A stretch of 32,000 nucleotides of DNA from Pseudomonas sp. 18175. GTDB lineage: Bacteria; Pseudomonadota; Gammaproteobacteria; Pseudomonadales; Pseudomonadaceae. Position 1 is the first letter of the stretch; the number at the start of each line of letters is the position of its first letter. A program made the position numbers and the translations under genes. The notes under the pieces are model-generated. The model did not search any database. It was not told where the DNA came from and saw only the letters and a list, made by a program, of their open reading frames with translations. Positions 6,012 to 32,000 of this stretch are shown piece after piece. Location: assembly GCF_050432925.1 (NCBI RefSeq), contig NZ_JBKFTO010000008.1, positions 49,593 to 81,592 on the forward strand. The letters run 5' to 3'.

Positions 6012-6060
6012 ACGTCCCCCCTAAGAAACCGGTTCTCGACCAGCAAGGAGCTTCTTGCCA

Positions 6061-9000
6061 ATGGCACAAATTGTCCACGCCGCCCGGCAGGGTGACGCCA
6101 TTCTTCACCCATCACTCATAGCTGAGTTAATCAGTGCAACAGTGGAAGCAGTCATCTATGCGGCGGCTGCGCTGGCGGTGGGGGCCGTTATTTGCCTTGC
6201 AGTAGTGGGTACCGTGTTCACGGGTGGCGCGCTCGGCGTCGTCATCGGGATAGCTGCAGGCGTTGCGGTAGGCGCCATGAGTTCGATTCCCATAGGCGAG
6301 GATCGAAGTATCGGTGACGCCATCTCCGACTTCTGCGACTCAATCGGCAACGCAGTAGACTCGCCCACTGTCTTAGGCGAAATCAAAAGCGGCTCCAAAA
6401 ATACCTTTATCAATGGCAAACCCGCCGCTCGCGCTGCGGCGATCAGTTCCCCCAATGGGTCTGAAGAAGAGAAAAATGGCGAGGAGCCTTCAGTTCTGGA
6501 GAACGTAAGCGCGATAGCGCAAACGGCTCTGGGATTTGCATTTCCTCCCCTCAAGTTGGTCAAAGACCTCTTTGACACGGTTCATCAAATTTTCAACCCT
6601 CCAGTAACAACCCCCGCAGCGCCGGGGTTCACCCCCAAGGAAGAAGACAAGATCACCTGCTCCCGTCATCCGCCCATGCCTGAGACCTACATAGCACAGG
6701 GCTCAGACAAGGTGCAGATCAATAGTCGGCCGGCGGCACGCTCGGGAGATAAGGCCACCTGCGATGCCACCATCGATGTAAACGCCAACGTCTCTCCCAA
6801 TGTGCGTATCGGCGGCGGAACGGTGACGGTTCGGAACATTCACAATGGCAAAAGCAAGACTGCGCAGATCGTGGGGATTGTTGCGGCACTGCTTATATCC
6901 AGACGAATGGGCGCGCGCCCTCGTCGTTCTCCACGATCGAAAAATAACTCGCCAATCTGTGGGTACAAAGGCCGTCCTGTGCATGTTTCCACCGGCAGCA
7001 AAGTCCTCGGCGGTGGAGAAGACGTCGACTTCAGCCTGCCTGGGCTGCTGGGCATCGAATGGGCCCGAAGCTACGACAGCAACGACTCCCGAACCGACGG
7101 ACTGTTCGGCATGGGCTGGAGCGTTCCCTATGAAGTGGAAATCGTCCGTGTTGCGCATCCCCACGGCGGCGAGCTATGGGTCTACGTTGACGAGACAGGC
7201 AACCGCCTGGAACTGGGCCAGCTCAGTGCCGGCAACGCGTTCGTCAGTGTCGTAGATGGCTTGGCTTTCTTCCAGTTGGAGGATGGTCAGACCGTTGTCG
7301 AGGACATTTATGCAGGGCGCTATCAGGTGTTCCAGCCTGATCCGCATAACCCGCAACGCTCGCGACTGATCCGCTTGGGCGATCGCAACCTCAACGTCCT
7401 GGACGTGCTGTACGACGAACAGGGCCGCCTGCACTTCCTCGTCGACAAGTACAGCCAAACCGTCGTACAGCTCCACTACGATCAACAACATCCAAACCGT
7501 GTCGGCAAAGCCTCTCGTGTATTCCTGAAGGCAGGCGGCAGCCTCAGCATTGAGCACAACAAGATCCTGGTCAGCTATCGCTATACACGCAGTGGTCAGT
7601 TGCAGGAAGTGTTGGACGCGACTGACCACGTGGTCCGTCGCTTCACCTACACCGCCGAGGGCTACCTGAACAGCCACCAGGTCGCCAGTGGTGCCGTCCG
7701 CGAGTACGAATGGGCGCGCTTTACCATCCCTGAGAACCGCCCCACACCCAAGCGCGCAGATGGCACCCTGTACCAGCTTCCGCCGCTGCTGGAACCGCAA
7801 CCCGATCACGAATGGCGCGTCACCCGTCACTGGGGCAGCGACGGCGAAGAGTATCGATTCAAATACGACCTGGAACGGGGTGAAACCCACGTCACCGACA
7901 GCCTCGGTCGTCAGGACCATTACTATTGGGGCCCGTTCTATGAGATCTACAAACACATCGACCCCCTCGGCAACTGCTGGCAAGAGGAAATCATCGCCGG
8001 GCAATTGATGAAGAGTGTCGATCCACAGGGCGGCGAATGGCATTACATCTATGATGACGTTGGCCGCCTGATTGAGGCGCGCGACCCACTGGGGCGTAGC
8101 GAATACATCCGCTACCTGCGCCACTGGGCCTTGCCTGTCGAAGTCACCGATGCTGCGGGGCGCACGTACCGCTCCGGCTACGATGCCCAGGGCAACCTGC
8201 TCTGGGAAGCGGATCCGCTGGGCCGTAAGACCCACTACCAATACGACCCCGAAGGTCGGGTGGTACGTGTCACCGATGCTCTGGACAAGACTAAGTACCT
8301 GAGCTGGAATGTGCACGGCCAGTTGCTCAGTTACCGCGATTGTTCCAATGCGCAAACGCTGTACCACTACGATGCCGACGGGCACCTCAGTGAAAGCATC
8401 AATGCCCGTGGCGAGCACACTCATTACCGTTACGACGCCCGCGGCTATCTGATCGAAAGCGAACGCCCAGACGGCCGCATCGACCGCTACGATATCGACG
8501 CTGCCGGCCAGCTCACCGCCTACACCGACCCCGCCCAGCGCATTACCCGCCTGCGTTATGACCGCAGTGGACAGCTAATCCAGCGGGTTGACGCCCTCGG
8601 CCATAGTGTCGAGTTTGGCTACGACGCCTATGGCCGCCTGCTGCACCTGAGCAATGAAAACCACGAACGCTACCGCTTCGAGTGGGATGCGCTGGATCGC
8701 CTGATCGCCCAACAGGACCTGGATGGCAGCGGGCGCATCTACCAGTACAACCCGCTGGATGATGTTACCGGCATCCACCATATTCCCGCGCCGCTGGCCG
8801 AGCCAGGTCTGGACGGCAAGGACAGCGCCGAACCGCACACGCCACTGGTACATCATTTCGAGCGTGATGCCCTGGGGCGGTTGATCCGCAAACGCACCGA
8901 CGATGGGGTCACCGAGTATGCCTACGACAATGCCGACAACCTGCTGACGATCAATTTCACCAACGTTCAAGGTGAAGAACAGTGTCTCAACTACACCTAC

Positions 9001-10680
9001 GACGCCCTCGGTCAACTGCTTAGCGAGACCAACAGCGCCGGCCTGCTGCAGTACGACTACGATGAACTGGGCAACCTGCAAACCCTGACCCTGCCCGATC
9101 AACGTCAGCTCAACCATCTGTACTACGGTAGCGGCCACCTGCATCAAATCAACCTGGGTGGCCGAGTAATCAGCGACTTCGAGCGCGATTCACTGCACGA
9201 GGAAGTGCTGCGCACTCAGGGCGCCCTGCTCACCCGCACCCGCTATGACCGCAATGGCCGACTCAGCCAGAAAGCCCTGCATTACCAGCAAGTCGCCCGT
9301 GAAGTGTTGCCGCTGTTGCAGAAAGACTACCAGTACGACACCAGCGACAATCTGGTGGCCGAGATACTGACCCAGACCCAGCGACCTGGCGGCAGCCGCC
9401 CGATCACGGCGGCCAATGACGACAGTCTGATCGGGCGATTTCACGGCCACACCTCAACCGGCAAATCCTATCAAGGCAGTGCCGCGTACGGCTACAACCC
9501 GGTCGAAGAGATCCAGAGTGTGCACCGGGGTCAGTCTATCGAGAGCCTCAACTACGACGCGGCCGGCAACCTGTTCGATGGCTATCGGGTCAACGGTCTG
9601 ATCAAGCACAACCGGGTGCATGTGTATCAGGACAAGCGTTATCGCTATGACCGCTTTGGCCGACTGAACGAAAAACGTAGCGGCAGCAACCGCATCCAGC
9701 GATTCGAGTATGACGCCGAGCACCGACTGATCGAGGTACATCAACAGAACGGCGCCCTGCGCCAACGCGTGGTATTCGGCTACGACCCGCTGGGGCGGCG
9801 CATCAGCAAGCAGGTGTATAACGACAACGCCAGCGAGCCGAGCCACCGCACGCTGTTTCATTGGCAAGGCTTACGGCTGCTCGAAGAGGTGCAGGACGGG
9901 AGGCCCAGCCTGTACGTGTATGCCGATCCGGGCAGCTATGAACCGCTGGCCCGCCTTGATGGCAAGCCGGGATGTGAGGAAATTTTCTACTTCCACACCA
10001 ACCTGGCGGGGCTGCCGGAACAGCTGACCGACACTGACGGCAACACGGTGTGGCACAGCGAGTACCAGGCCTGGGGCACGACGCGGAACGAGTGGCATGA
10101 TCAGCAGCCAGGGCGTGAGCAGAACCTGCGTTTTCAGGGCCAGTACCTTGACCGCGAAACCGGGCTGCACTACAACACCTTCAGGTTTTATGATCCGGTT
10201 GTGGGGCGATTTACCCAGCCGGATCCGATTGGGTTGATGGGTGGGATCAACCTGTACCAGTACGCGCCGAACCCGATTGGGTGGGTTGATCCGCTGGGGT
10301 TAACTAGATGTCCTGACATTAATCCCCCCCCATCTAGCCCAACCCCAAACCCGCAGACAGGCTTAGGCTATGGCGTGAACGACAAACCAGTAAGAATCGA
10401 GGGGACATGGAACAAACAGGACATATTTAATGGTCTACACGGAAGGACACCAAAATCATTAGGTTCTCCTGACCTACACCATGCACATCAAATGCCTGGC
10501 TCAGGCATACATGAAGTTCGCCCTAGAGACCACAGAGGAAATAAGGCTCTACATCCGAATGGACAAAGAAACCAAGGCGTAACACCCGAAATGCGAAAGG
10601 CCGATCGGGAACTACACTGGTGGTACCGCGCCAGAGAACAAGGCGCCGACAAAATCTACCCCAACTCAATATACGATTAA
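6061..10680 (+). CDS. rhs: prePAAR Rhs-family T6SS effector: prePAAR motif + TM helices + split PAAR + YD-repeat shell + DPxGL cleavage motif + about 125-aa C-terminal toxin
   Basis: The ATG at 6061 follows AGGAG, and the N-terminus MAQIVHAARQGDAILH matches AARxxDxxxH. Long hydrophobic Gly/Ala-rich helices follow. PAAR-like blocks are FINGKPAARAAA and VQINSRPAARSGD. There are many YD repeats (YxYDxxGxL). The core ends PDPIGLMGGINLYQYAPNPIGWVDPLGL at nt 10302. The tip at 10303-10677 is visibly AT-richer. Confidence 0.92.
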   Translation: MAQIVHAARQGDAILHPSLIAELISATVEAVIYAAAALAVGAVICLAVVGTVFTGGALGVVIGIAAGVAVGAMSSIPIGEDRSIGDAISDFCDSIGNAVDSPTVLGEIKSGSKNTFINGKPAARAAAISSPNGSEEEKNGEEPSVLENVSAIAQTALGFAFPPLKLVKDLFDTVHQIFNPPVTTPAAPGFTPKEEDKITCSRHPPMPETYIAQGSDKVQINSRPAARSGDKATCDATIDVNANVSPNVRIGGGTVTVRNIHNGKSKTAQIVGIVAALLISRRMGARPRRSPRSKNNSPICGYKGRPVHVSTGSKVLGGGEDVDFSLPGLLGIEWARSYDSNDSRTDGLFGMGWSVPYEVEIVRVAHPHGGELWVYVDETGNRLELGQLSAGNAFVSVVDGLAFFQLEDGQTVVEDIYAGRYQVFQPDPHNPQRSRLIRLGDRNLNVLDVLYDEQGRLHFLVDKYSQTVVQLHYDQQHPNRVGKASRVFLKAGGSLSIEHNKILVSYRYTRSGQLQEVLDATDHVVRRFTYTAEGYLNSHQVASGAVREYEWARFTIPENRPTPKRADGTLYQLPPLLEPQPDHEWRVTRHWGSDGEEYRFKYDLERGETHVTDSLGRQDHYYWGPFYEIYKHIDPLGNCWQEEIIAGQLMKSVDPQGGEWHYIYDDVGRLIEARDPLGRSEYIRYLRHWALPVEVTDAAGRTYRSGYDAQGNLLWEADPLGRKTHYQYDPEGRVVRVTDALDKTKYLSWNVHGQLLSYRDCSNAQTLYHYDADGHLSESINARGEHTHYRYDARGYLIESERPDGRIDRYDIDAAGQLTAYTDPAQRITRLRYDRSGQLIQRVDALGHSVEFGYDAYGRLLHLSNENHERYRFEWDALDRLIAQQDLDGSGRIYQYNPLDDVTGIHHIPAPLAEPGLDGKDSAEPHTPLVHHFERDALGRLIRKRTDDGVTEYAYDNADNLLTINFTNVQGEEQCLNYTYDALGQLLSETNSAGLLQYDYDELGNLQTLTLPDQRQLNHLYYGSGHLHQINLGGRVISDFERDSLHEEVLRTQGALLTRTRYDRNGRLSQKALHYQQVAREVLPLLQKDYQYDTSDNLVAEILTQTQRPGGSRPITAANDDSLIGRFHGHTSTGKSYQGSAAYGYNPVEEIQSVHRGQSIESLNYDAAGNLFDGYRVNGLIKHNRVHVYQDKRYRYDRFGRLNEKRSGSNRIQRFEYDAEHRLIEVHQQNGALRQRVVFGYDPLGRRISKQVYNDNASEPSHRTLFHWQGLRLLEEVQDGRPSLYVYADPGSYEPLARLDGKPGCEEIFYFHTNLAGLPEQLTDTDGNTVWHSEYQAWGTTRNEWHDQQPGREQNLRFQGQYLDRETGLHYNTFRFYDPVVGRFTQPDPIGLMGGINLYQYAPNPIGWVDPLGLTRCPDINPPPSSPTPNPQTGLGYGVNDKPVRIEGTWNKQDIFNGLHGRTPKSLGSPDLHHAHQMPGSGIHEVRPRDHRGNKALHPNGQRNQGVTPEMRKADRELHWWYRAREQGADKIYPNSIYD
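8572..10302. repeat. Direct repeat copy A (3' part of the Rhs core within the main rhs gene)
   Basis: It aligns to 11169-12899 at a constant offset of 2597 nt with no indels that I could find. From about 8614 to about 10190 it is near-identical, with scattered substitutions. Both edges are more diverged. Confidence 0.85.
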
Positions 10681-11168: not shown

Positions 11169-12899
11169 CTGCCGGTCCAGCGTGTCGATGCCTTCGGCCA
11201 CAGTGTCAAGTTTGGCTACGACGCCTATGGCCGCCTGCTGCACCTGAGCAATGAAAACCAAGAACGCTACCGATTTGAGTGGGACGCGCTGGACCGCCTG
11301 CTCGCCCAACAGGACCTGGACGGCAGCGGGCGCATCTACCAGTACAACCCGCTGGATGATGTTACCGGCATCCACCATATTCCCGCGCCGCTGGCCGAGC
11401 CTGGTCTGGACGGCAAGGACAGCGCCGAACCGCACATGCCACTGGTGCACCATTTCGAGCGTGATGCCTTGGGACGGTTGATTCGCAAACGCACCGACGA
11501 TGGGGTCACCGAGTATGCCTACGACAATGCCGACAACCTGCTGACGATCAATTTCACCAACGTTCAAGGTGAAGAACAGTGTCTCAACTACACCTACGAC
11601 GCCCTCGGTCAACTGCTTAGCGAGACCAACAGCGCCGGCCTGCTGCAGTACGACTACGATGAACTGGGCAACCTGCAAACCCTGACCCTGCCCGATCAGC
11701 GTCAGCTCAACCATCTGTACTACGGTAGCGGCCACCTGCATCAACTCAACCTGGGTGGCCGGGTGATCAGCGACTTCGGGCGCGATTCACTGCACGAGGA
11801 AGTGCTGCGCACTCAGGGCGCCCTGCTCACCCGCACCCGCTATGACCGCAATGGCCGACTCAGCCAGAAAGCCCTGCACTACCAGCAGGTCGCCCGCGAA
11901 GTATTGCCGCTGTTGCAGAAAGACTACCAGTACGACGCCAGCGACAATCTGGTGGCCGAGATACTGACCCAGACCCAGCGACCTGGCGGCAACCGCCCGA
12001 CCACGGCGGCCAATGACGACAGTCTGATCGGGCGATTTCACGGCCACACCTCAACCGGCAAATCCTATCAAGGCAGTGCCGCGTACGGCTACAACCCGGT
12101 CGAAGAGATCCAGAGTGTGCGCCGGGGTCAGTCTATCGAGAGCCTCAACTACGACGCGGCCGGCAACCTGTTCGATGGCTATCGGGTCAACGGTCTGATC
12201 AAGCACAACCGGGTGCATGTGTATCAGGACAAGCGTTATCGCTATGACCGCTTTGGCCGGCGGAACGAAAAACGTAGCGGCAGCAACCGCATCCAGCGAT
12301 TCGAGTATGACGCCGAGCACCGACTGATCGAGGTACATCAACAGAACGGCGCCCTGCGCCAACGCGTGGTATTCGGCTACGACCCGCTGGGGCGGCGCAT
12401 CAGCAAGCAGGTGTATAACGACAACGCCAGCGAGCCGAGCCACCGCACGCTGTTTCATTGGCAAGGCTTGCGACTGCTTGAAGAGGTGCAGGACGGCAGA
12501 CCCAGTCTGTACGTATATGCCTATCCGGGCAGCTACGAACCCTTGGCCCGCGTCGATGGCAAGCCAGGCAGCGAGGATATCTTCTACTTCCACACCAACC
12601 TGGCGGGGCTGCCGGAACAGCTGACCGACACTGACGGCAACACGGTGTGGCACAGCGAGTACCAGGCCTGGGGCACGACGCGGAACGAGTGGCATGATCA
12701 GCAGCCAGGGCGTGAGCAGAACCTGCGTTTTCAGGGCCAGTACCTTGACCGCGAAACCGGGCTGCACTACAACACCTTCAGGTTCTATGATCCGGATGTG
12801 GGGCGGTTTACTCAGACGGATCCGATTGGGTTGGCGGGCGGGCTGAACCTTTATCAATATGCTCCAAATTCGACAGGTTGGATTGATCCATTAGGGCTA
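11169..12899. repeat. Direct repeat copy B (orphan Rhs core fragment)
   Basis: This is the same alignment as copy A. It begins immediately after the immunity gene stop (11158-11160) and ends at the DPLGL codons (12885-12899). Confidence 0.85.
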
Positions 12900-13271
12900 A
12901 GGAGATGCCCTAAACTATGGGATGTGGACTCCCACCAAAATAATAAGAACGCCGTTAGGGGCCGAAATCTTAAATTGGATTCACACCATGTCGGACAAAA
13001 AAACATCATGCAAAATTTGGTGAAGAATTATGATCCCAAGACAGCTCCGACCATCCTAGTACCTCGGACTGGCCATACAACAAGAAATGGAGAAATCGGC
13101 ATTGTATCCAGAAGCAAGATAAACCCAAAAACAGGACAACCATTTACAAATGCCAGATCTCTTGTCGCTAGAGACATTAAAGAGCTAAGGAGAGTTTACC
13201 CAGACATTCCGAATAGCAAGCTCCAGGAACTCATTAGACTTAACAAAGAAATGTACCCAGAACTCAGGTAA
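11436..13271 (+). CDS. Orphan Rhs C-terminal module (truncated YD-repeat core + DPxGL + alternative 123-aa toxin tip)
   Basis: The frame is open from 11145 but has no ATG/GTG/TTG before 11436. The Met codon at 11436 corresponds to ACG (Thr) in the main copy. The core is near-identical to rhs residues from about 840 on. The tip after WIDPLGL (12900-13268) is unrelated to the main tip and AT-rich. Confidence 0.8.
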   Translation: MPLVHHFERDALGRLIRKRTDDGVTEYAYDNADNLLTINFTNVQGEEQCLNYTYDALGQLLSETNSAGLLQYDYDELGNLQTLTLPDQRQLNHLYYGSGHLHQLNLGGRVISDFGRDSLHEEVLRTQGALLTRTRYDRNGRLSQKALHYQQVAREVLPLLQKDYQYDASDNLVAEILTQTQRPGGNRPTTAANDDSLIGRFHGHTSTGKSYQGSAAYGYNPVEEIQSVRRGQSIESLNYDAAGNLFDGYRVNGLIKHNRVHVYQDKRYRYDRFGRRNEKRSGSNRIQRFEYDAEHRLIEVHQQNGALRQRVVFGYDPLGRRISKQVYNDNASEPSHRTLFHWQGLRLLEEVQDGRPSLYVYAYPGSYEPLARVDGKPGSEDIFYFHTNLAGLPEQLTDTDGNTVWHSEYQAWGTTRNEWHDQQPGREQNLRFQGQYLDRETGLHYNTFRFYDPDVGRFTQTDPIGLAGGLNLYQYAPNSTGWIDPLGLRRCPKLWDVDSHQNNKNAVRGRNLKLDSHHVGQKNIMQNLVKNYDPKTAPTILVPRTGHTTRNGEIGIVSRSKINPKTGQPFTNARSLVARDIKELRRVYPDIPNSKLQELIRLNKEMYPELR

Positions 13272-15395: not shown

Positions 15396-16637
15396 TCACG
15401 ACTGATGTGTACGACCTCGGGTGCGTAAATTGTGATCCGTAGAGGCGGATGCAGGCAGACACGGCAAACCGCGATCGGTCCACCAGCACCAGGCGCCGGC
15501 CAATGCACGCTCCTTGGCGATACGTTCCGATGCCTTCATAAAGGGGCTCAGCACATGCAGCGGCACGGGCGCATCTCCAGCATCCACCAGCAATGCATTG
15601 GCAAAGGCCGCCGCCTCACTAGCCGTCGCGTCATACCGCAACGGCTTGATAAAACGCCTGCGCTGCTCGATCAGTGCGTGAACCAACATTGCGTCATGCA
15701 AGCCCTCCACCGCTATCCATTCAGCCGTGGTCAGCATCAAGCTGGCTGCCTCCACCGCATAGGTGGACTCGCGCTTGGCGTAGACCAGCGCCGTGACAAT
15801 CAACCGTAGAGGGATATCACTGTCAGCATCCCGCGCCTCGAACAATGCTGCGTAGCTATGTTGCAACCGTCTCCAAGTGGCGTCGTTCAGCAGCAGCGGC
15901 ACCTCCGGCATGTGCTTGATCCAGAGCTTATGCCCCTGCCCGCCCGGTTCACAGCCTTTGAGCTCGCCCAGGATCAACGCCAGCGGTCGCTCTTCGCCCA
16001 CCGGGTTGAGCAACGCCAGCTGTTGACGCCGCCGTTGTGCGATATCGGCTTTGTGCTCAAGGGTGAATTGTTCGGGCACATACAGGCGTTCGCTAAGGGA
16101 TACACCCTTGACCCGAATATCCCGCGCCGCCGCCATCAGGTAATGATGGATCACTCGCTGTGAACGCTTCCCGGCCATGGCCGGACTCCAGCGATTGAAG
16201 CCGGCACGCTCGAACAAAAAGTGCGTCACCGCCCGCAAGCTCATGCGTCGCGCCGTGGCCTGCACCTCGCCGGGCTCCTCCTGTGCCGGGCCATGCACGA
16301 CACTGCGTCCGCCCAACCGGGCCCACGGAAAATCCACGCGCAACTCAACCTGCCCCGGCACGTCTTCGCGCACCGCCTCCCCGAGCAATGCGCCCAGTCC
16401 AGACGCTGCCGCCTCGGGCGCATAGGCCGCGCAACCGGGATGGTGCAATTGACCAGTGTCGGGCATACGTTTGATCTGGTACTGCCGGTAGTGCGCGATA
16501 TACATCTCCACGCCTCCCGGCACGCATAGGCAGCGCGGGCGTTCTGCAGTGCCATGCAGTTGCGCCAAATACGTTTGCAGGCGCGGATCGTCAGCTTCAA
16601 AAATATGCCCACCGAGGGCGAAATGACGTGTGCCCAT
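15396..16637 (-). CDS. DUF1173-like protein of unknown function
   Basis: 413 aa. An N-terminal Cys/His cluster (RPRCLCVPGG...HHPGC) and C-terminal ...WIAVEGLHD...RRFIKPLRYD... match my recollection of DUF1173. It starts 24 nt downstream of the recombinase-like gene on the same strand. Confidence 0.55.
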   Translation of the reverse strand: MGTRHFALGGHIFEADDPRLQTYLAQLHGTAERPRCLCVPGGVEMYIAHYRQYQIKRMPDTGQLHHPGCAAYAPEAAASGLGALLGEAVREDVPGQVELRVDFPWARLGGRSVVHGPAQEEPGEVQATARRMSLRAVTHFLFERAGFNRWSPAMAGKRSQRVIHHYLMAAARDIRVKGVSLSERLYVPEQFTLEHKADIAQRRRQQLALLNPVGEERPLALILGELKGCEPGGQGHKLWIKHMPEVPLLLNDATWRRLQHSYAALFEARDADSDIPLRLIVTALVYAKRESTYAVEAASLMLTTAEWIAVEGLHDAMLVHALIEQRRRFIKPLRYDATASEAAAFANALLVDAGDAPVPLHVLSPFMKASERIAKERALAGAWCWWTDRGLPCLPASASTDHNLRTRGRTHQS

Positions 16638-16661
16638 GGTTGCCCTCCCATCGGGTCCGCG

Positions 16662-17588
16662 CTAGAGCAAGCGTTGGGTCAGGTCGGACAGCGTCGGACG
16701 CGGTCGGGGTAACAGCGCGCGCACTGCACTGTTATCGCGGATGCCAAGCAACACCCCGACTTGCGCCTCATCCGCACCGCACTCGTACAGCAATGCGGTT
16801 ACGGTACGTCGGGCATCGCGACTGCTGAGGGCAGGCAAACCCGCCAGGCGAAACAGTTTGCGCAAGGCGTCCTGCATGCCCCGGCAGCGATGATGGGCAA
16901 TGCCATCCACTTCGCTGCATTGCAGCGCATAAGCCTGACCGTAGGGGTTAAGAAATAGCGGGCTGTCGGGTGCCAGGCCCAGGTAGCGGTCACCCTCGCC
17001 CAGCCCATGCCCGCGCCGCACGCGTTCACGCAGATAATCGGTCAGGGCTGCGATCAGCCTAGGACTGGTGAGGTACAGCGGTCGCACATGAGCGTTATGG
17101 CTGACCTCGGCGCGGACTTCGCTACGCGTGCGCAACTGGCCGTTGGCATTCACGCAGTCGCTGACGGTCAAGCGGGCCAACTCCAGCGGGCGCATCCCGG
17201 TGGTGAACAGTAGGTAGAACAGCGCGAGGTCATGCGCGCTATGCCCCGAACGTGCGCGCAGTTGATCTATCGCCTGCTGCAGCATCTGACGATTCAACAC
17301 CGGCGAGACCTCGCCGCATTCCACCGCAACAGTGCGCGCCAGGGCGCATTCGAGGGCTGGGCGATGCTCACGTAAGCGTCGCACAAAAGCCGCACTGTCG
17401 AGCGTCAAACCTTGGATGCCCACGCTGTGGATCAGATGCTCAACCAGCGCCTTGATCCGGCGCTCAACCACACTGCGCGCCAGCCCATGTCGACGGCCCA
17501 CGGTCTGGTAGCTGTCGCCATCGAGCACCTCACGCAACATCACCACCAATTCGGCGTAACCGTGCGGATCCGTCAACCATGCGGGCAT
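16662..17588 (-). CDS. Tyrosine-recombinase (phage integrase)-fold protein apparently lacking the catalytic Tyr and both His
   Basis: The ATG at 17588 is preceded by GAGGGAG; the ORF-track start at 17612 is a TTG. Box I FTTGMRPLELARL retains the Arg. Box II reads SSRDARRTVTALLYECGADEAQVGVLLGIRDNSAVRALL, where H-x-L-R-H...LLGH...Y is expected. Confidence 0.7.
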   Translation of the reverse strand: MPAWLTDPHGYAELVVMLREVLDGDSYQTVGRRHGLARSVVERRIKALVEHLIHSVGIQGLTLDSAAFVRRLREHRPALECALARTVAVECGEVSPVLNRQMLQQAIDQLRARSGHSAHDLALFYLLFTTGMRPLELARLTVSDCVNANGQLRTRSEVRAEVSHNAHVRPLYLTSPRLIAALTDYLRERVRRGHGLGEGDRYLGLAPDSPLFLNPYGQAYALQCSEVDGIAHHRCRGMQDALRKLFRLAGLPALSSRDARRTVTALLYECGADEAQVGVLLGIRDNSAVRALLPRPRPTLSDLTQRLL

Positions 17589-17663
17589 CGGTCCTACTCC
17601 CTCACGTTGCAAGTGGTCAAAAACGGAGAACGGCCACGCCGTTCTCCGTACAGGGGCACCCGA

Positions 17664-25208: not shown

Positions 25209-26761
25209 GCCAACCCCTTTCGCCCTCACCGACACAAGAGTTGACGGCCCTGCCAGTGTCGCAGGTACTGGCGCAGCATCAGGAATGGATTGAGCGGATT
25301 CGCGTGTGCTACGGCGCCGAGCGCCAGCACTTTGAACACGAGGTGTTGAGCGTCATCGAAGGTTATGCGGCCTATGTGCACTTACTGCCAGCGACGCCAG
25401 CAGATGCCTTTTGTGAACCAGGCGGCTTGCTGCGCCTGGGCTTGGAGACCGCGTTCTACAGCCTGCAAGGCAGCGACGGGCAAATCTTCGCCGGGCGTGC
25501 CAGCCTGTCCAGCCGCCGCCACCTGGAACCGCGCTGGCGACTGGCGGCGCTGATCGCCGGTCTATGCGCCGAAGCCTACCGGCCGCTGGCACAGATGCGG
25601 ATCACTTCGCCCAACGACGCAGCCTGGCCGGCGGCGCTGGAGCCACTGGCACACTGGTTGCGAAACAACGACGTGGAACGTTATGCCGTGGGTTGGCGAG
25701 CGAACCTAGCGGAAGCGCGCAGCCTGAACCTGTTCGTCTTGCCGCATCTACTGCCCGCCGGAGTGTTGCGGCATCTGGCCGATAGCAATGAAGTGATTAT
25801 CCCGCTGTTGCTGAACAGCCTGGCCAATGAACCGCAACACACGTCACCCAACCAGCTATTGGATCTGGTGCGACGCGCACAGAGCGTGGTGATTGATCGG
25901 CAACGACGTCAGTACGCCGGCTGCCACATCACATTCGCTCGCCCACCCTCCCCGCACCAGGCGCTCGACGCTGCACTGCGCCAACTGTGTCAGCACAACC
26001 CCGCGTGGTGGCCAAACCGCCCGAAGAGCCGGCTGTGGTGGGGAGCAGACGGCGTTTTTTTGATCTGGCCGGGGGCCGCTGCCGAACTGCATCGGGCGCT
26101 GCACGATGTGCTGCAGACGAAGCTGCCGGACGATCCCGAGGCCTTGTTGCCCTGGCTGGCCGACGCAGAACTGCTGCAGGCAACCCCGGCGGCGGACTTG
26201 CTTTGGCCTATCCAGCCACCGCCCGCCCAGACGCCGCAGACCGCCCTCAAACTGCTGGACAGCCCACCCTGTTGGGCGGACCTGGACCCAAAGCCCACGC
26301 CGCTGGACCAATGCCTAATGCCTCCGCCCATCGCGCGCCCGCCCACCCTAGCGCCCGAACAGTGGCCCTTGCCGTTGGAGCCAGAACCGGAACCATCCGC
26401 CCCCGAACAACCACCGCCCTTGATCTTGCAGGCACCGCTCCGCCTGAATCCGACCGTACGCGATGCGCTCACCCTGGCCCTGCCCACCCTGTACGCCCCC
26501 TGCGCCACCGCCCAGGTGCGCACCGTCGCCGAGGGCCTGTTTGTACCGCTGAGCACGTTTGAGCAGCACCGCGTGTTGCCGGCGGCCGCGCTACGTGCAC
26601 TGGACGACGCCGGCATGCTGGTGCCGTCAGCGACCGACGCCGCCCCCACCCACACGCGCGACTTTGCGGGTACACCCACCCACGGCGTCATCATCGCACC
26701 GCGCTTTATCGGTGGACTGGACCCGGCCGCCTTCATCCCCCCGACGGAGCCGGAGCCCTGA
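25205..26761 (+). CDS. traI: MobH/TraI_2-family ICE relaxase homologue (PFL_4751/TIGR03760-like), with a proline-rich region
   Basis: The ATG at 25205 is coupled to the upstream stop. The segments YAAYVHLLPA...GGLLRLGLE, ...W..AALIAGL..., ...GVFLIWPGAAAEL... and its position directly upstream of traD fit this relaxase family. The ORF-track start at 24878 lies inside the FlhC-like gene. Confidence 0.6.
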   Translation: MSQPLSPSPTQELTALPVSQVLAQHQEWIERIRVCYGAERQHFEHEVLSVIEGYAAYVHLLPATPADAFCEPGGLLRLGLETAFYSLQGSDGQIFAGRASLSSRRHLEPRWRLAALIAGLCAEAYRPLAQMRITSPNDAAWPAALEPLAHWLRNNDVERYAVGWRANLAEARSLNLFVLPHLLPAGVLRHLADSNEVIIPLLLNSLANEPQHTSPNQLLDLVRRAQSVVIDRQRRQYAGCHITFARPPSPHQALDAALRQLCQHNPAWWPNRPKSRLWWGADGVFLIWPGAAAELHRALHDVLQTKLPDDPEALLPWLADAELLQATPAADLLWPIQPPPAQTPQTALKLLDSPPCWADLDPKPTPLDQCLMPPPIARPPTLAPEQWPLPLEPEPEPSAPEQPPPLILQAPLRLNPTVRDALTLALPTLYAPCATAQVRTVAEGLFVPLSTFEQHRVLPAAALRALDDAGMLVPSATDAAPTHTRDFAGTPTHGVIIAPRFIGGLDPAAFIPPTEPEP

Positions 26762-26762
26762 A

Positions 26763-28655
26763 ATGTTGCGTCGTTACGAAATGCCCTGGCGCCGCGCCTA
26801 TGAGCTGTATGCCGCGATTGCCTGGGGCCTGGGCCTTTTGTGGCTGGTCGCCGTCGGCCTGCCCGGCTGGCTGCATCCACGCCTGGCCCTGCCGTTGGCG
26901 CTGTTGTGCCTGCTGCTGGCGGTACGGCGCCTGGCCCAGGCCCTGCAGGTCTTGATCCTCCGTGCTTCGCTGGTCGGCCATGCCATGCAAACCCTCAGCA
27001 CCCGCGAACTGGCCCGCTGGTGCCAAGCACCGGATCAAGTGTTCCTCGGTTTCGGTTTCGAGTGGCAGCCGCAGCATTCCCAGCGCCTGTATGAGCTGGC
27101 CAAGATCGACTACCGCGACCTGCTCGCCCCGCCCCGCGTCTTGCGCTGGCTGGGCTACCGCCGCCCACCCCAACCCGACGCCGAGATCGGCCTGCCCTAC
27201 CTGCACGGCGTCGAACCCCAGGAGCAGGCGCTGTACCGCCCACTGCAGAACTTCGAGGGCGGCACCCTGCTGGTTGGCACCACCCAGTCCGGCAAGGGCG
27301 TGGCCCTGGCCACCCTGATCACCCAAGCCGTCCGCCGCGGCGACGTGGTGATCGTGCTTGACCCGAAAAACAGCCAACGCCTCAAGCGTGTTGTGCAGCG
27401 TGCCTGCGACGATTACCGCGAACCCGGCACCTTCCTTGAATTCCACCCCGCCTTCCCCGAACACGGCGTGCGCCTGGACTTCACCTTCAACTGGCAAAAG
27501 CCCACCGAAATCGCCTCACGCATCCAATCGGTACTCCCGCCGGACACCGGTGGGGCCTTTGCCGCCTTCGCCTGGGATGCGGTCAACGTGGTGGTGCAGG
27601 CGCTGGTCGATATCGAAGAACGCCCCAACCTGCTCAAGCTCACCCAATGCATCGAAGGCGGCATCGAACCGGTACTGGAACGCTCGCTGTCCCGCTACTA
27701 CGAACAGCAACTGGGCCACGGCTGGCGCGAGCAGGCCACCCTGAAAAAGCTCCTGGACGACGCCCGGCGCGGCAAGCTCAAACGCCCCTCGGACGCGACC
27801 AGCCCACAATTGCTGGCCCTGGTCAGCTACTACGAGCACCACCTGCCCGCCGCCCAACGCACCAAGGTGCTCGACGCCCAGGTGCGCACCTTCCGCCACA
27901 ACCGCGAGCACTACCAGAAGATCACCGCCAACCTGCTGCCGATCCTGTCGATGCTGACCTCCGGCGACCTCGGCCGCAGCCTCTCACCCGACCCGTTCGA
28001 CCCCCACGACCTACGCCCGATCATGAACTTCGAAAAGATCGAACAGGCCGGCCATGTGCTGTACATGTGCCTGGACTCCCTGCCAGACCCCGCCGTGGCC
28101 TCGGCCATCGGCGCCCTGGCCCTGGCCGACCTCGCCGCACGCGCCGGCATGCGCTACAACCTCGGCGGCGGCCGGCGCATCGCCCTGTTCGTCGACGAAG
28201 TGGCCAACGTCATCAATGCCCCGCTGATCGAACTGCTCAACAAAGGCGCCGAAGGCGGCGTCTACACCACCTGCGCCATGCAAACCCTCGCCGACCTGGC
28301 CGAACGCCTCGGCAGCGAACACGCCGCACGCAAGGCCCTGGGCAACCTCAATAACCTGATCGCCCTGCGCAGCAAGGACCGCCCGACCCAGGACTTCATC
28401 GTCGAAACCTTCGGTAAAACTGCCGTCCACAGCCTGCGGCACGGCCTGTCCAGCGGCGCCGACGCGCACCTTGGCGACTTCTCGTCGAGCCACTCAACCA
28501 CAGTGATTGAAGGGTTCGAAGAACGCGTACCGGCCGACATGCTGGGCAAACTGCCTAACTTGCAGTACTTCGCCTCCGTCTCGGGCGGGCGCCTGCTGAA
28601 AGGGCGCTTTCCCATCATCGTGCCGGACAGTGAAGACATGGAGGAACCGCCATGA
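26763..28655 (+). CDS. traD: Conjugative coupling ATPase TraD (PFGI-1/ICEclc class, VirD4/FtsK-like)
   Basis: The ATG at 26763 is 2 nt after the traI stop. It has two N-terminal TM helices, a Walker A GTTQSGKGV and a Walker B-like RIALFVDEV. About 630 aa. Confidence 0.8.
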   Translation: MLRRYEMPWRRAYELYAAIAWGLGLLWLVAVGLPGWLHPRLALPLALLCLLLAVRRLAQALQVLILRASLVGHAMQTLSTRELARWCQAPDQVFLGFGFEWQPQHSQRLYELAKIDYRDLLAPPRVLRWLGYRRPPQPDAEIGLPYLHGVEPQEQALYRPLQNFEGGTLLVGTTQSGKGVALATLITQAVRRGDVVIVLDPKNSQRLKRVVQRACDDYREPGTFLEFHPAFPEHGVRLDFTFNWQKPTEIASRIQSVLPPDTGGAFAAFAWDAVNVVVQALVDIEERPNLLKLTQCIEGGIEPVLERSLSRYYEQQLGHGWREQATLKKLLDDARRGKLKRPSDATSPQLLALVSYYEHHLPAAQRTKVLDAQVRTFRHNREHYQKITANLLPILSMLTSGDLGRSLSPDPFDPHDLRPIMNFEKIEQAGHVLYMCLDSLPDPAVASAIGALALADLAARAGMRYNLGGGRRIALFVDEVANVINAPLIELLNKGAEGGVYTTCAMQTLADLAERLGSEHAARKALGNLNNLIALRSKDRPTQDFIVETFGKTAVHSLRHGLSSGADAHLGDFSSSHSTTVIEGFEERVPADMLGKLPNLQYFASVSGGRLLKGRFPIIVPDSEDMEEPP

Positions 28656-29260
28656 TCCGCGCCATCGCCGTGACGTCGCTGGTGACCTTGCTGATCCTGG
28701 TGCTGTACCTGCCCTCGGCGCATCCACCCGAGCGGTTCTTGGCGCAACTGCGGACGGAGCATGTCGCCAGCATTTCCTTCTGGGGACCGGAGGCCGCGAA
28801 CCGCATTCTTAACCGCGCCTTGCGCCTGCAGGGCGACACGGCCCAGATCACGCCCTTACCCAAGCCCTCCGCCACACCGGACAACGCCACGGCGCAGGAA
28901 ATGAGCGCGATGAACCGGCGGCTATTCAACAACCCCTACTTCCGCTCGATCGACGCCCTACTCCTGCTCGCCAGCTACCGCGCCGCCGTGCTGCTGGAGT
29001 GGTTGCCCTGGCTCGCTGGGCTGATCGCCGTGATGGTCATCGACGCCAGCCTGCAGCGCAGGATCAAGGCCAAGGAGTTTCGGCAGCACGATCCAGAGTT
29101 GTTTGCGTTGTATGCCGGGCTGGGGATTTTTACGGCGTGTGCCAGTGTGTTGGCGTGCGCGGCGCCGGTCACTTGGCATCCGATGGTGATGCCGCTGCTG
29201 CCGCTGGTGGTGGGGCTTTGGGGGAGTCTGGCGTGGGGGCACTATCATCGGAGGGGATAG
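28652..29260 (+). CDS. ICE integral membrane protein (PFL_4697/TIGR03747-like)
   Basis: The ATGA overlap with the traD stop indicates coupling. 202 aa with 3-4 predicted TM helices. Its position after traD matches PFGI-1-type ICEs. The family call is from memory. Confidence 0.5.
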   Translation: MIRAIAVTSLVTLLILVLYLPSAHPPERFLAQLRTEHVASISFWGPEAANRILNRALRLQGDTAQITPLPKPSATPDNATAQEMSAMNRRLFNNPYFRSIDALLLLASYRAAVLLEWLPWLAGLIAVMVIDASLQRRIKAKEFRQHDPELFALYAGLGIFTACASVLACAAPVTWHPMVMPLLPLVVGLWGSLAWGHYHRRG

Positions 29261-29545
29261 GTTTCATTCCAGCATCCACGCAACATTCCATTGTGCTTAT
29301 AGACACCACTTCAGAGTCAATGTAGCTTTTTGACATCGTGATCATGGATCGTACCGAAAGTCTGCCAAGAGGGAACTGGAGTGCTAGTAAAATCCCTTCA
29401 CCCAACCAATTTCAATATGCGCCCATCACTCGAGCAACCTATAGTTCTGGCCTCGTTACTAAAAAACAGGCAGGTGACCTGAAATTTCCAGTTGTAATAA
29501 ATCTATCCCATAACTTTTAAACAAACGACAATAGATAGGCATACA

Positions 29546-31015
29546 ATGGCAACCGAAAGCGAAGTCAGCATCGGTGGAACGTATCTTGGCGGAACAGCTA
29601 GATATCTTGGGGACGAGCAAGCGTCACTCTTCAATTCATCCGATCTTGTGGCAACTGGAGATATCAAGGACGACTCATTCCGTCGAGTCTACAGCATTAG
29701 TATTGCAGAACTCCGTCGCCGTCTAGAAGCACTTGGTTATTCACTGCCCCAGGTACGTAATGAGATAGTTTCAAATTTAAGAAACGGCTACAAAGAACTC
29801 GAAGCAGACGCCCCAACTCAATGCAAAGAATTTCTCGACTATGGCTGCTCAATAACAATCGAACAGCTTATCGAACTAGCCCAACAGTGGAAAACATCAG
29901 ACAAAAGCGAATGGAACTATCTGTCCCAATTTAACATGGATAACTTTCCAGAGACTCTTCTTGAATTTATTCAAGGGTGCAGCTCCGAACTCCTATTACC
30001 CTCTCAAAATATTTGGCTGCACGGCCACTATTTCGAGCGACTACTATGCGAAGTTCATACAGATGACGAGCTATTTGAAATAGATTTCACGCAACTTATC
30101 CGTGCCGGCTATTACAAGCCTGACGCTCAACCAATTTCCGATGATTTCGACCATTCGCTTACGCGATTTCATCCGCGCGCCTTCAGACTCATGGATACCC
30201 TGACGGAAGAGGAGTCCGATACACTCGAATTCAAGTCCGTGTCGGCAGGCAATCCATCCAAAGCCATTGCTAAGCAACTGCCGAAGTACCTCATTGGCTT
30301 TCTGAACAACAAAGGTGGTCAAGTTTTGTTCGGCGTAAGCGATGCCGGCATCGCTGAAGGAGTTTCGCTCAATCGCAATGATCGTGACTTGTTATATCGC
30401 GAGATTGCAGCCGCCACCTTATGTATCACACCGAATATAGCTCAAACTGAAGTTAAAGTAGAGCTACGCCCTTTGATTAGTGCTGGCACGGAAGTAAGTG
30501 ATAAATTCGTTGTTGACATTTCCGTTCCATGCGGCAGACCCAACGAAATGTACTTCACAACTAGTGGAGAGACCTGGTATAGGTTCGGCACAACTACGAA
30601 CTCACTTACAGGGCACAAGTTATTTAATCACATATGCGCCCGCTACAGCTCGGCCGACAATTTACTCAGAGCCGTAACCCAACGTTATCACGCAGCTACC
30701 GATGAAATACGACGTATGGAGCAAGACGAGGCCCGTTCCCAAGCAGATCTCGCAGAAAAGAAAGACGAGTTGTCGGCATTGCGGGAAAGTGTATCTTCCG
30801 CCTGGAAACTACTCAAAGAAACAGATCTGATCTGTCCATCCTGCGACTCTCCGATCGCGCGCAGACATTCTTTTGAAGAAACCCTATCAATCGGCGGGAA
30901 AGATATAGGCGCAGATTGCGAATACATCGAGTATACCTGCGGCTATTCCACTCGAGACGATCGCACCGAACCGTTATCGCCATGCTCAAACAAAGCCCAA
31001 CCGCAGTCCGAATGA
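29546..31015 (+). CDS. Schlafen/AlbA_2-domain protein with an unknown N-terminal domain, a coiled coil and a C-terminal zinc ribbon (candidate defence protein)
   Basis: AT-rich. ESDTLEFKSVSAGNPSKAIAKQLPKYLIGFLNNKGGQVLFGVSDAGIAEGVSL (from about nt 30209) is the AlbA_2 (PF04326) signature E..LEFK...i.k.i.AF.N..GG.l.iGV.d.G.i.G. A heptad-like segment EIRRMEQDEARSQADLAEKKDELSALRES follows. Cysteines CPSCDSP...CEYIEYTC lie near the C-terminus. Confidence 0.7.
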   Translation: MATESEVSIGGTYLGGTARYLGDEQASLFNSSDLVATGDIKDDSFRRVYSISIAELRRRLEALGYSLPQVRNEIVSNLRNGYKELEADAPTQCKEFLDYGCSITIEQLIELAQQWKTSDKSEWNYLSQFNMDNFPETLLEFIQGCSSELLLPSQNIWLHGHYFERLLCEVHTDDELFEIDFTQLIRAGYYKPDAQPISDDFDHSLTRFHPRAFRLMDTLTEEESDTLEFKSVSAGNPSKAIAKQLPKYLIGFLNNKGGQVLFGVSDAGIAEGVSLNRNDRDLLYREIAAATLCITPNIAQTEVKVELRPLISAGTEVSDKFVVDISVPCGRPNEMYFTTSGETWYRFGTTTNSLTGHKLFNHICARYSSADNLLRAVTQRYHAATDEIRRMEQDEARSQADLAEKKDELSALRESVSSAWKLLKETDLICPSCDSPIARRHSFEETLSIGGKDIGADCEYIEYTCGYSTRDDRTEPLSPCSNKAQPQSE

Positions 31016-31037
31016 AGCCCTCCTCAGGAGACGGTTA

Positions 31038-32000
31038 ATGAGCCAACAACGCTTGAACCCTGAATTGGATGCACAAAAATTAAGAGAAAATGCACTCACT
31101 TCGATCCGACTCGGCATTGAAGATTTTGAAAGATGCCAAACGGCTCCGAGTTCCGGAGGCGACCCAGCTCGTGCCCTCTCCGCAGTACGGAATCTTTTCG
31201 CGGGAGTACTGCTGCTGTTCAAGTACAAAATTGCCATTTCGGTGGACGATCCCAACGACGCCGCATCACTCATTTTCACACCTCCAGAAGTTCTACCCCA
31301 AAGCGATGGCAATGGAGGCGTCGAGTGGGCACCCAAAGGAAAATTCAAGCCGACAACCATTGATGTAGGAACAATTAAAAAACGGTTTGAAGGCTTCGAA
31401 ATCAACGTTGATTGGAAGGTGGTAGAGAGACTTCAGAACTGCCGCAATCATCTGGAACATCTGCATCCTGCAACGACATTAGGTGAGGTCGCTGATTTCG
31501 TCGCAGAGCTCTTTCCGGTGGTGCGTGACTTCATCCAGGTCCAGCTGGAAGAACCCCCAGCTGATATTTTGGGCACAGCTTGGCAAACCATGCTGCTGCA
31601 TCACAGCTTCTTCGTGGATACGAAAGAACAATGCAGAAAGGCTTGGGCAGCAGCAAATGTTCCAGACGGCATGACACCTTGGCTTGACGAAAGCCAATGT
31701 GAAGAGTGTTCGTCTTCTCTACTGACCCCCGGCCCACTATTTATTGATGATGGTGCGAGTGTAGAAAGGGACGAAGATACCTTTGAATATCTATGTTTGG
31801 CATGCGGCAATACCGACCTCATTGTTCCACTCATCGTCGAAACTTTAAACAAAGCTCACGACTATGATCCACGGGATGGAGAGGAGCCCAGCGTAGAAGA
31901 CTGCATAGAGTGCGGGCATGGGACATTTGTTATTTATGAACAGAATTGTCTGTGGTGTAAGACAGAGCTTGAGTACACAGAGTGCTGGATCTGTGAAGAA
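31038..32000 (+). CDS. HEPN-like (Rx4H) protein with multiple CxxC zinc ribbons; 3' end outside window
   Basis: It is not in the ORF track because no stop is reached. I translated 321 codons from the ATG at 31038 (8 nt after AGGAG) to nt 32000 with no stop. It has a helical N-domain with LQNCRNHLEHLH (R-N-x3-H at 31443-31460). Then come CEEC...CLAC, CIEC-x12-CLWC and CWIC. It starts 22 nt downstream of the AlbA_2 gene. Confidence 0.6.
   Translation, partial: MSQQRLNPELDAQKLRENALTSIRLGIEDFERCQTAPSSGGDPARALSAVRNLFAGVLLLFKYKIAISVDDPNDAASLIFTPPEVLPQSDGNGGVEWAPKGKFKPTTIDVGTIKKRFEGFEINVDWKVVERLQNCRNHLEHLHPATTLGEVADFVAELFPVVRDFIQVQLEEPPADILGTAWQTMLLHHSFFVDTKEQCRKAWAAANVPDGMTPWLDESQCEECSSSLLTPGPLFIDDGASVERDEDTFEYLCLACGNTDLIVPLIVETLNKAHDYDPRDGEEPSVEDCIECGHGTFVIYEQNCLWCKTELEYTECWICEE

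Follow-up and report, generated by a model that had tools for sequence, protein, structure and literature searches.

Bacterial immunity based on Schlafen proteins was described in 2025–26. In the sections of Perez Taboada et al. (Nat Microbiol 2026; PMC13056530) compared here, prokaryotic Schlafen (pSlfn) proteins, among them RorSlfn5 and EcoSlfn7, confer protection from phage through tRNA cleavage, and a Schlafen protein of Enterococcus lactis likewise provides phage defence by tRNA cleavage (PMC13552941). The former study, in these sections, defines the catalytic motif Ex4(E/D)xK and sorts pSlfn architectures into 55 classes. It reports protection for 2 of 7 systems tested in E. coli and, in its survey, places 30% of pSlfn genes away from defence genes. 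Both papers present phage protection by proteins whose fused sensors vary.

Two further sets of proteins are relevant. HEPN/Toprim-NTD1 modules fused to HEPN, Toprim or Mrr nucleases were catalogued by Anantharaman et al. in 2013 (PMC3710099). Payne et al. (2024, bioRxiv 10.1101/2024.01.29.577857), in the portion of the preprint used here, list PDC-S64 among 145 phage defence candidate (PDC) systems and report HEC-08 as a validated anti-phage system in which the histidine of the Rx4-6H motif is required for defence.

Here we analyse a 32,000-nucleotide stretch of Pseudomonas sp. 18175 (the window; contig NZ_JBKFTO010000008.1, positions 49,593 to 81,592). A sequence-only reading had proposed that two adjacent genes near its right end, here A and B, form an undescribed defence system. 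We instead favour, with a probability of about 0.7, the view that the AT-rich segment was acquired horizontally, as cargo of an integrative conjugative element, and carries two independent single-protein candidate defence genes of the abortive-infection type.

Cargo next to a conjugative backbone

All features described here lie on the forward (+) strand. The GC-rich conjugative backbone ends with a TraD coupling protein and a DUF4400 protein (PF14348) encoded at 26559..29260, assigned with TIGR03743 and Pfam; TraD scored 659.9 bits (cut-off 366). The components expected of such an element (coupling protein, relaxase and integrase) were found in the window, with TraI_2, Phage_integrase and DUF4400 matched in addition to TraD. 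At 29260, the end of the DUF4400 gene, GC content drops abruptly from 0.64 to about 0.47, with values of 0.64–0.69 in the flanking segments before this point and 0.44–0.50 after it. The GC content of third codon positions (GC3) is 0.83–0.85 in the TraD and DUF4400 genes compared with 0.46–0.47 in genes A and B. This strong composition break, directly downstream of TraI_2, TraD and DUF4400, bears out the earlier assignment of the segment as cargo, and the gene boundaries given with it are also correct: gene A occupies 29546..31015 and, beyond a spacer of 22 nt, gene B begins at 31038. The right end of the cargo lies outside the window, and further genes could therefore belong to it. A near-identity DNA search with the cargo against plasmids returned no match. 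Nor did the window DUF4400 protein match the truncated DtrJ-like gene with which a locus of Pseudomonas sp. WP18 (L001) begins, so that a cargo site common to the two elements could not be demonstrated.

An AT-rich intergenic region (29261..29545, GC 0.42; delimited by composition and ORF positions) separates the backbone from gene A and presumably contains the cargo promoter. The promoter suggested previously, TTGTAA-17-TTTTAA, was not recovered by a consensus scan and does not stand out from chance expectation; for this region the scan yielded 2 promoter-like sites, where 2.8 would arise by chance. Gene B has its own ribosome-binding site, AGGAG (31026..31030), located inside the spacer 7 nt upstream of the ATG, and we found no terminator-like site between the two genes. 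Given the short spacer and the lack of such a site, A and B are probably co-expressed, and interplay specific to this locus is therefore possible.

Gene A encodes a candidate Schlafen nuclease

Gene A encodes 489 amino acids, identical to a protein annotated in Pseudomonas sp. 18175 (P0001). Its domains, motif and predicted fold identify it as a putative pSlfn nuclease. Residues 223–353 (30212..30604) match the Pfam family SLFN_AlbA_2 (PF04326; 49.7 bits, E = 6.4 × 10−13, cut-off 25.3). In a Foldseek search of the PDB with the AlphaFold2 (AF2) model (pLDDT 84.5), the top matches were all Schlafen/SAMD9 nucleases, comprising SLFN13, 12, 11, 5 and 14 and the SAMD9 tRNase domain (E = 6 × 10−7 to 7 × 10−4, with SLFN13 at 6 × 10−7). 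The Schlafen/AlbA_2 assignment of the sequence-only reading is thus upheld by profile and fold. The TLEFK motif that it quoted sits inside EESDTLEFK, that is, the catalytic motif Ex4ExK (E223-SDTL-E228-F-K230; 30212..30235, from sequence and homologue alignment), the E223, E228 and K230 residues of which are invariant in 24 homologues.

The N-terminal domain, previously described as unrecognized, corresponds to a known Pfam family: residues 1–192 (29546..30121) match HEPN/Toprim-NTD1 (PF18871; 38.3 bits, E = 1.8 × 10−9, cut-off 25). It is presumed to be a sensor or regulatory module. A homologue search with this domain recovered two proteins only, and the proposal that the module swaps effectors therefore draws on Pfam and PMC3710099. 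Behind the nuclease domain, the predicted structure and weak coiled-coil matches indicate two long helices (residues 356–393 and 399–426; 30611..30823) that are absent from some homologues and possibly serve oligomerization. A β-rich, zinc-ribbon-like domain follows at residues 432–478 (C432, C435, C459 and C478; 30839..30979; alignment and AF2 model) and is missing from shorter relatives (P0013, P0017, P0025 and P0026). The family is small, with about 26 proteins, mainly from Pseudomonas together with Lysobacter and Rhodanobacter, and database names of its members are 'RNA-binding' or 'putative DNA binding domain-containing protein'.

Gene A resembles the pSlfn proteins of PMC13056530 and PMC13552941, as described in the sections compared, in its SLFN_AlbA_2 domain with the Ex4(E/D)xK motif, in joining the nuclease and a variable non-catalytic domain within one polypeptide, and in its occurrence in defence islands and mobile elements. 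It differs from them in the fused module: among the published architectures covered by this comparison, the partners are Ig-like, DUF262 and histidine-kinase domains, whereas gene A carries HEPN/Toprim-NTD1 together with a coiled coil and a zinc ribbon. With the fusions of PMC3710099, it shares the same N-terminal module placed before a nuclease effector in single, abortive-infection-like proteins. The effectors there are HEPN (MAE_18760 in Table 1 and the text, MAE_28990 in Table 2; ERFG_01251), Toprim and Mrr endonuclease domains; Schlafen appears as a separate N-terminal partner of the MAE_18760 HEPN domain, and a fusion of NTD1 to Schlafen is not described in that work.

Gene B belongs to the PDC-S64 family

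The window contains the first 321 of 347 amino acids of gene B (31038..32000), a PDC-S64 family protein with a HEPN-like N-terminal domain and three zinc ribbons. As had been suggested, the gene continues beyond the window, by about 81 nt, given the length of an identical database protein (P0027, 347 amino acids). Residues 11–312 match the PADLOC HMM for PDC-S64 (PDLC05058; E = 1.3 × 10−35, 121.5 bits) over profile positions 6–286 of 305, and distant relatives match the same HMM. No NCBIfam family matches A or B. At 50% identity, the gene B family falls into 795 clusters, spread across Proteobacteria.

We predict from sequence comparisons that residues 11–186 (31068..31595) form a divergent DUF3644-type HEPN domain, of the DUF3644/EC042_2821 branch of the superfamily. 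In hhalign, the gene B profile aligned with a nine-sequence DUF3644 alignment over 144 columns (80% probability, E = 1.4 × 10−5) and placed R136 and H141 on R191 and H196; reversed, shuffled and unrelated-family controls reached at most 3.7%. The nine-sequence alignment was used in place of the single E. coli 042 DUF3644 sequence, which produced a spurious 16-column match (0.65%). The window protein itself has no Pfam match to DUF3644 (PF12358) or HEPN. Among 120 relatives, 24 have sub-threshold DUF3644 matches (best E = 0.0014), and in this set DUF3644 is the only recurrent Pfam family unrelated to zinc binding. Foldseek returned nothing significant from the PDB or BFVD (the HEPN toxins 8yuf and 8xdj had probabilities of 0.18–0.28), and PDB profile searches yielded chance zinc-finger matches only. 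The HEPN assignment made earlier therefore holds only through the profile–profile comparison, and neither Pfam nor Foldseek alone provides it. The RNHLEH sequence on which that assignment was based (R136–H141; 31443..31460) is conserved and has the form of the Rx4H motif of HEPN RNases: across 120 relatives, R136, E140 and H141 do not vary, and N137 is kept in at least 90%.

Residues 221–321 (31698..32000), delineated by their cysteines, contain the first two zinc ribbons in full and the initial half of the third. The sites are C221/C224/C253/C256, C289/C292/C304/C307 and C316/C319/C334 plus a histidine or cysteine at position 337. All eleven cysteines are invariant in the 120 diverse relatives, 70 of which match the Pfam double zinc ribbon (DZR), so that the multiple zinc ribbons recognized at the outset are confirmed as three sites.

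In a near full-length match to the HMM, in standing alone without a partner gene and in its location beside or inside other defence systems, gene B shows no material difference from PDC-S64 as the preprint portion used here presents it. It also resembles HEC-08 as described there, which likewise is a single gene with an N-terminal DUF3644-type HEPN domain bearing Rx4H, followed by several C-terminal zinc modules. However, the PADLOC HEC-08 models gave no match to B at E values up to 1, PDC-S64 being the only model listed. Since the link to DUF3644 also comes from profile–profile comparison only, B is better regarded as an analogue or very distant relative of HEC-08 than as a member.

Genomic context and pairing of A and B

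The surroundings of both families make a role in defence plausible, in line with the sequence-only reading. Genes near gene A relatives include those of Shedu (at 2 loci), PD-T7-1 and Gabija, as well as AbiJ and a reverse transcriptase of the DRT type. In addition, a prophage carries one relative as a moron, and another occupies a different site in a conjugative element. Gene B relatives neighbour AbiH (5 loci), LmuB (4), ThsA, GajB, reverse transcriptases, SIR2 and restriction–modification genes, and one is located between Gabija and an integrase. Further gene B relatives are carried by 11 viral contigs and 13 plasmids, and all but one of these plasmids are conjugative or mobilizable. In the genome scan, a single B protein as query found no loci, whereas an alignment query recovered them.

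To determine the extent to which the two genes travel together, we searched the loci of each family for the other with tblastn, within 6–10 kb where the contig allows. Gene B was found in 0 of 13 A loci and gene A in 0 of 67 B loci; the closest relatives of B (84% and 73% identity) have no adjacent A. Clustering the neighbours of 50 genomic B loci revealed no neighbour family shared by more than 7 loci, and among the loci examined we found no constant partner gene of A or of B. Three genes were weighed as possible partners of A. Two lie upstream of it, one YaaC-like (at L053 and L055) and one SMC-like (at L141 and L143), and the third, of 275 amino acids, overlaps the 3′ end of A (at L057, L141 and L142). 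Each is confined to loci that are closely related, and all are absent from the window.

Because the homologues do not co-occur at the loci searched and B matches a named candidate, PDC-S64, both of which the sequence-only reading had itself listed as refuting outcomes, the proposal of an undescribed two-gene system is unsupported. Nor are the kinds of protein new, as bacterial Schlafen defence and HEC-08, with its HEPN domain and zinc fingers, have already been published.

Alternative explanations

A cooperative two-gene system, with one protein as sensor and the other as actor or with jointly activated RNases, has in its favour the shared orientation, the 22-nt distance, the separate ribosome-binding site of B, the lack of a terminator-like site and the similar GC3 (0.46 and 0.47). 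Against these local features stand the counts of 0 of 13 and 0 of 67 loci and the disparity in family size, with 795 clusters for B and about 26 proteins for A. A putative sensor and an effector are already united in each protein, and PDC-S64 belongs to the PADLOC 'S' series, which we read as single-gene and for which no partner was found. We regard such cooperation as very unlikely. Also doubtful are two further ideas: that A and B were joined in this element into one transcription unit giving layered or synergistic protection and, separately, that NTD1 and the triple zinc array are phage-sensing modules of uncharacterized kinds. We favour the account in which A and B are in tandem by chance and probably co-transcribed in this element; their pairing is defence-gene stacking at a cargo site and has no functional meaning beyond this.

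The two genes might also not act against phages at all, and might serve the element through exclusion of or interference with rival plasmids and elements or through addiction-like stabilization by toxic RNases, or be nucleic-acid-binding regulators. Both are on a conjugative element, and 12 of the 13 plasmids with B relatives are conjugative or mobilizable; AlbA_2 proteins, including the relatives of A, are often annotated as DNA- or RNA-binding, and 30% of pSlfn genes are located apart from defence genes in the survey of PMC13056530. However, both families have invariant catalytic motifs, known anti-phage systems recur among their neighbours where transfer or regulatory genes do not, and a conserved antitoxin-like partner is lacking at the loci examined, which makes this explanation improbable. 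It is similarly unlikely that the helical domain of B is not a HEPN RNase and that RNxxEH has a structural or ligand-binding role in a zinc-finger protein of some other activity. The absence of a Pfam HEPN or DUF3644 match for the window protein, the low Foldseek probabilities and the empty PDB profile search are what this explanation would lead one to expect; the alignment with DUF3644, far above its controls and with the Rx4H residues in register, the recurrence of DUF3644 among the 120 relatives and the invariance of R136, E140 and H141 argue against it. The reading that we retain is that both genes are ordinary defence cargo and single-gene candidates.

Possible mechanisms and implications

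For gene A, we infer a mechanism by analogy with RorSlfn5, EcoSlfn7 and human SLFN11 and SLFN13. The HEPN/Toprim-NTD1 domain would sense a phage cue, until which the nuclease would be kept inactive; on activation, the Ex4ExK site would cut tRNA in the anticodon arm and thereby stop translation, and the coiled coil and zinc ribbon may aid oligomerization. For gene B, the models are HEC-08 and further HEPN proteins of abortive infection: dimerization of two HEPN domains would create the RNase site, and the zinc-ribbon array may bind nucleic acid or a phage protein and so gate RNase activity.

The apparent new system thus resolves into two recognizable modules, and the case cautions that close gene spacing within cargo is insufficient on its own to make an operon-level system. 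If active, gene A would add a HEPN/Toprim-NTD1 sensor class to bacterial Schlafen immunity. Gene B, if active, would validate PDC-S64, a family widespread across Proteobacteria, and would link it to the DUF3644 HEPN proteins.

Locus and surrounding genes

At position 29260, GC content falls from 0.64–0.69 to 0.44–0.50 and GC3 from 0.83–0.85 to 0.46–0.47, so the segment that follows, with genes A and B, is clearly foreign cargo. This position is the stop of a plus-strand gene for a 202-aa DUF4400 protein, which overlaps the stop of the TraD coupling protein gene (659.9 bits to TIGR03743, cut-off 366). Re-reading the sequence recovered the same plus-strand open reading frames that the sequence-only reading had delimited: gene A (29546–31015, 489 aa) and, after a 22-nt spacer containing AGGAG, gene B, which starts at 31038 and runs past the window end. 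The two are probably co-transcribed in this locus. The promoter proposed for them did not pass our promoter scan, which found 2 promoter-like sites compared with 2.8 expected by chance. Inside gene B (31542–31563, plus strand), a hairpin with a T-rich run after it resembles a terminator but is probably a chance match, given 5 such sites in the region compared with 2.7 expected.

The first 13.3 kb of the window hold a type VI secretion VgrG/Rhs–PAAR toxin region, with TssK/VasE (435–1781), VgrG (3603–5534), a 1541-aa PAAR–Rhs toxin (6055–10680) and a second Rhs fragment (11436–13271). The Rhs C-terminal ends, the usual place of variable toxin tips and immunity genes, coincide with two AT-rich patches (approximately 10.5–11.0 kb and 13.0–13.5 kb; GC 0.42–0.43). 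Between this region and the conjugative genes, which include a TraI_2 relaxase (24.9–26.8 kb), a minus-strand segment with a DUF1173 gene and a tyrosine recombinase (15396–17612) possibly forms the conjugative element's left end. The 32-kb window has no tRNA gene, and the attachment site was therefore not located.

Relatives of genes A and B occur separately

Searches using tblastn found relatives of gene A at 0 of 67 loci with B relatives (50 genomes, 11 viral contigs and 6 contigs carrying the closest relatives) and relatives of gene B at 0 of 13 loci with A relatives; clustering of neighbour genes yielded no conserved partner for either. As judged from these neighbourhoods, A and B are not a pair, contrary to the two-gene system first proposed, and we saw no evidence of mutual dependence. 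Upstream of the nearest B relative (84% identity) is just a small divergent ORF, and a relative at 73% identity is flanked by Gabija and an integrase. The closest non-identical A relative (67%; Pseudomonas sp. WP18, locus L001, 10001–11467) lies between TraC and TraU on another conjugative element, with no B relative at the locus; 16 nt separate its start from the end of an upstream 244-aa multi-pass membrane-like gene. At three metagenomic loci (L057, 4421–5290; L141, 7481–8308; L142, 3981–4808), the A relative shares its 3′ end with an overlapping gene of 275–290 aa, the copies of which are 96–100% identical to one another and match no Pfam family. Neither the window nor the other A loci have this gene, which could be an accessory gene specific to a subclade.

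Both families are found among known defence genes. Known defence families recur among 122 proteins flanking B relatives, including AbiH (5), LmuB (4), ThsA, GajB, defence reverse transcriptases, SIR2, Eco57I, XhoI and DndB, and A relatives adjoin Shedu (twice), PD-T7-1, Gabija, a DRT-type reverse transcriptase, AbiJ/YaaC and Abi_C. B relatives occur on 13 plasmids, 12 of which are conjugative or mobilizable. Neither gene was found in the GenBank phage set. The gene A family is also carried by phages, as indicated by a relative (47% identity) in a Lysobacter sp. CA196 prophage (L054, 8001–9383), which occupies a moron-like position between capsid and portal/terminase genes, on the opposite strand to them. 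Two Achromobacter sp. UMC46 contigs (L011 and L012) have identical ORF maps, apparently of one 21-kb B-containing locus, which suggests a duplicated mobile element.

Gene A encodes a Schlafen nuclease

Residues 223–353 of gene A match SLFN_AlbA_2 above the Pfam threshold (E = 6.4 × 10−13). Here EESDTLEFK provides E223-x4-E228-x-K230, which corresponds to the Schlafen-nuclease catalytic motif Ex4(E/D)xK (PMC13056530); none of the three residues varies among 24 homologues. For an AlphaFold2 model built on the homologue alignment (mean pLDDT 84.5), Foldseek returned 34 significant PDB matches (E down to 6 × 10−7), namely Schlafen N-domains (SLFN13, 12, 11, 5 and 14), the SAMD9 tRNase/DNA-binding domain and Corynebacterium diphtheriae DIP2311 (3lmm). 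Family, motif and fold thus bear out the initial AlbA_2/Schlafen assignment. The N-terminal domain, initially regarded as unrecognised, belongs to a known family, because residues 1–192 match HEPN_Toprim_N (PF18871) above threshold (E = 1.8 × 10−9). This N-terminal HEPN/Toprim-NTD1 module (~240 aa) was described in abortive-infection-like proteins as a fusion partner of HEPN, Toprim and Mrr nucleases (Anantharaman et al. 2013, PMC3710099); in gene A it precedes a Schlafen nuclease. Beyond the nuclease, two long helices (356–426) and a beta-rich CxxC...C...C domain are accessory, as both are absent from some relatives.

Gene B belongs to the PDC-S64 family

The identical full-length protein of gene B (347 aa) matched no Pfam or NCBIfam family; it matched the PADLOC phage defence candidate PDC-S64 (E = 1.3 × 10−35). 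In Payne et al. 2024 (10.1101/2024.01.29.577857), PDC systems are 145 candidates of predicted activity, identified through 'guilt by embedding', their genes lying inside BREX, DISARM and type I restriction-modification loci. The family comprises 795 clusters at 50% identity (members taken at E up to 10−3). Its architecture is constant across 120 members (26–63% identity to the window protein), with D29, R45, R51, G56, K62, R136, E140, H141 and eleven cysteines, which form three zinc sites, all invariant. A low-confidence beta-hairpin insertion (residues 85–107, window ~31290–31358; pLDDT ~50) separates helix 3 from helix 4 within the helical HEPN-like domain; D90, G93, W97, P99 and G101 are conserved there in the close family. 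One Pseudomonas sp. Irchel s3h17 contig carries two family genes approximately 300 kb apart (L002 and L044; 69% and 28–29% identity to gene B), so divergent PDC-S64 paralogues coexist in one genome.

The HEPN call for gene B rests on profile comparison. Its confident AlphaFold2 model (pLDDT 85.6) matched nothing significantly in the PDB and BFVD using Foldseek, with probabilities of just 0.18–0.28 for the HEPN toxins 8yuf and 8xdj. Pfam scans of the 120 relatives gave zinc-ribbon families and one other recurrent family, DUF3644 (24 of 120, best E = 0.0014), which is classed as HEPN (Anantharaman 2013, PMC3710099). A DUF3644 profile of the Escherichia coli 042 protein and eight plasmid proteins, with invariant R191 and H196 forming an Rx4H motif, was compared using hhalign with a 30-sequence profile of the gene B N-terminal domain. 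The two align over 144 columns (80% probability, E = 1.4 × 10−5), placing R136 on R191 and H141 on H196. Controls gave 0.1% for reversed alignments, 0.6% for the best of 60 column shuffles (score 18.5 compared with 43.7) and 3.7% over 22 columns for the unrelated gene A family. The E. coli 042 protein (L132, 13188–14501) itself matches PADLOC candidate PDC-S19 (E = 2.5 × 10−68); its gene starts an ssrA-integrated island, adjoining a DNA methyltransferase, with an integrase and ssrA nearby. As no HEC-08 model matched, gene B is not a member of HEC-08, a validated defence protein of HEPN and zinc-finger architecture; it is a distant analogue or relative.

Proposed mechanism and significance

By analogy with RorSlfn5, triggered by the T5 tail assembly chaperone (PMC13056530), and with human SLFN11/13, the N-terminal module of gene A would sense infection and release the Schlafen nuclease, which would cut tRNA and arrest translation. 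By analogy with HEC-08 and other HEPN abortive-infection proteins, HEPN dimerization in gene B would create an RNase site under the control of the zinc-ribbon array.

The claim of an undescribed system does not hold, as bacterial Schlafen defence was published in 2025–26, PDC-S64 has been listed in PADLOC since 2023 and the HEC-08 architecture is validated. Modestly new are the NTD1–Schlafen–coiled coil–zinc ribbon architecture of gene A, in a small Pseudomonas-centred family, and the profile-level link of PDC-S64 to DUF3644 HEPN domains. Genes A and B are best filed as further members of known defence kinds, stacked in a conjugative-element cargo site; the locus is no new type of system and merits a simple experiment.
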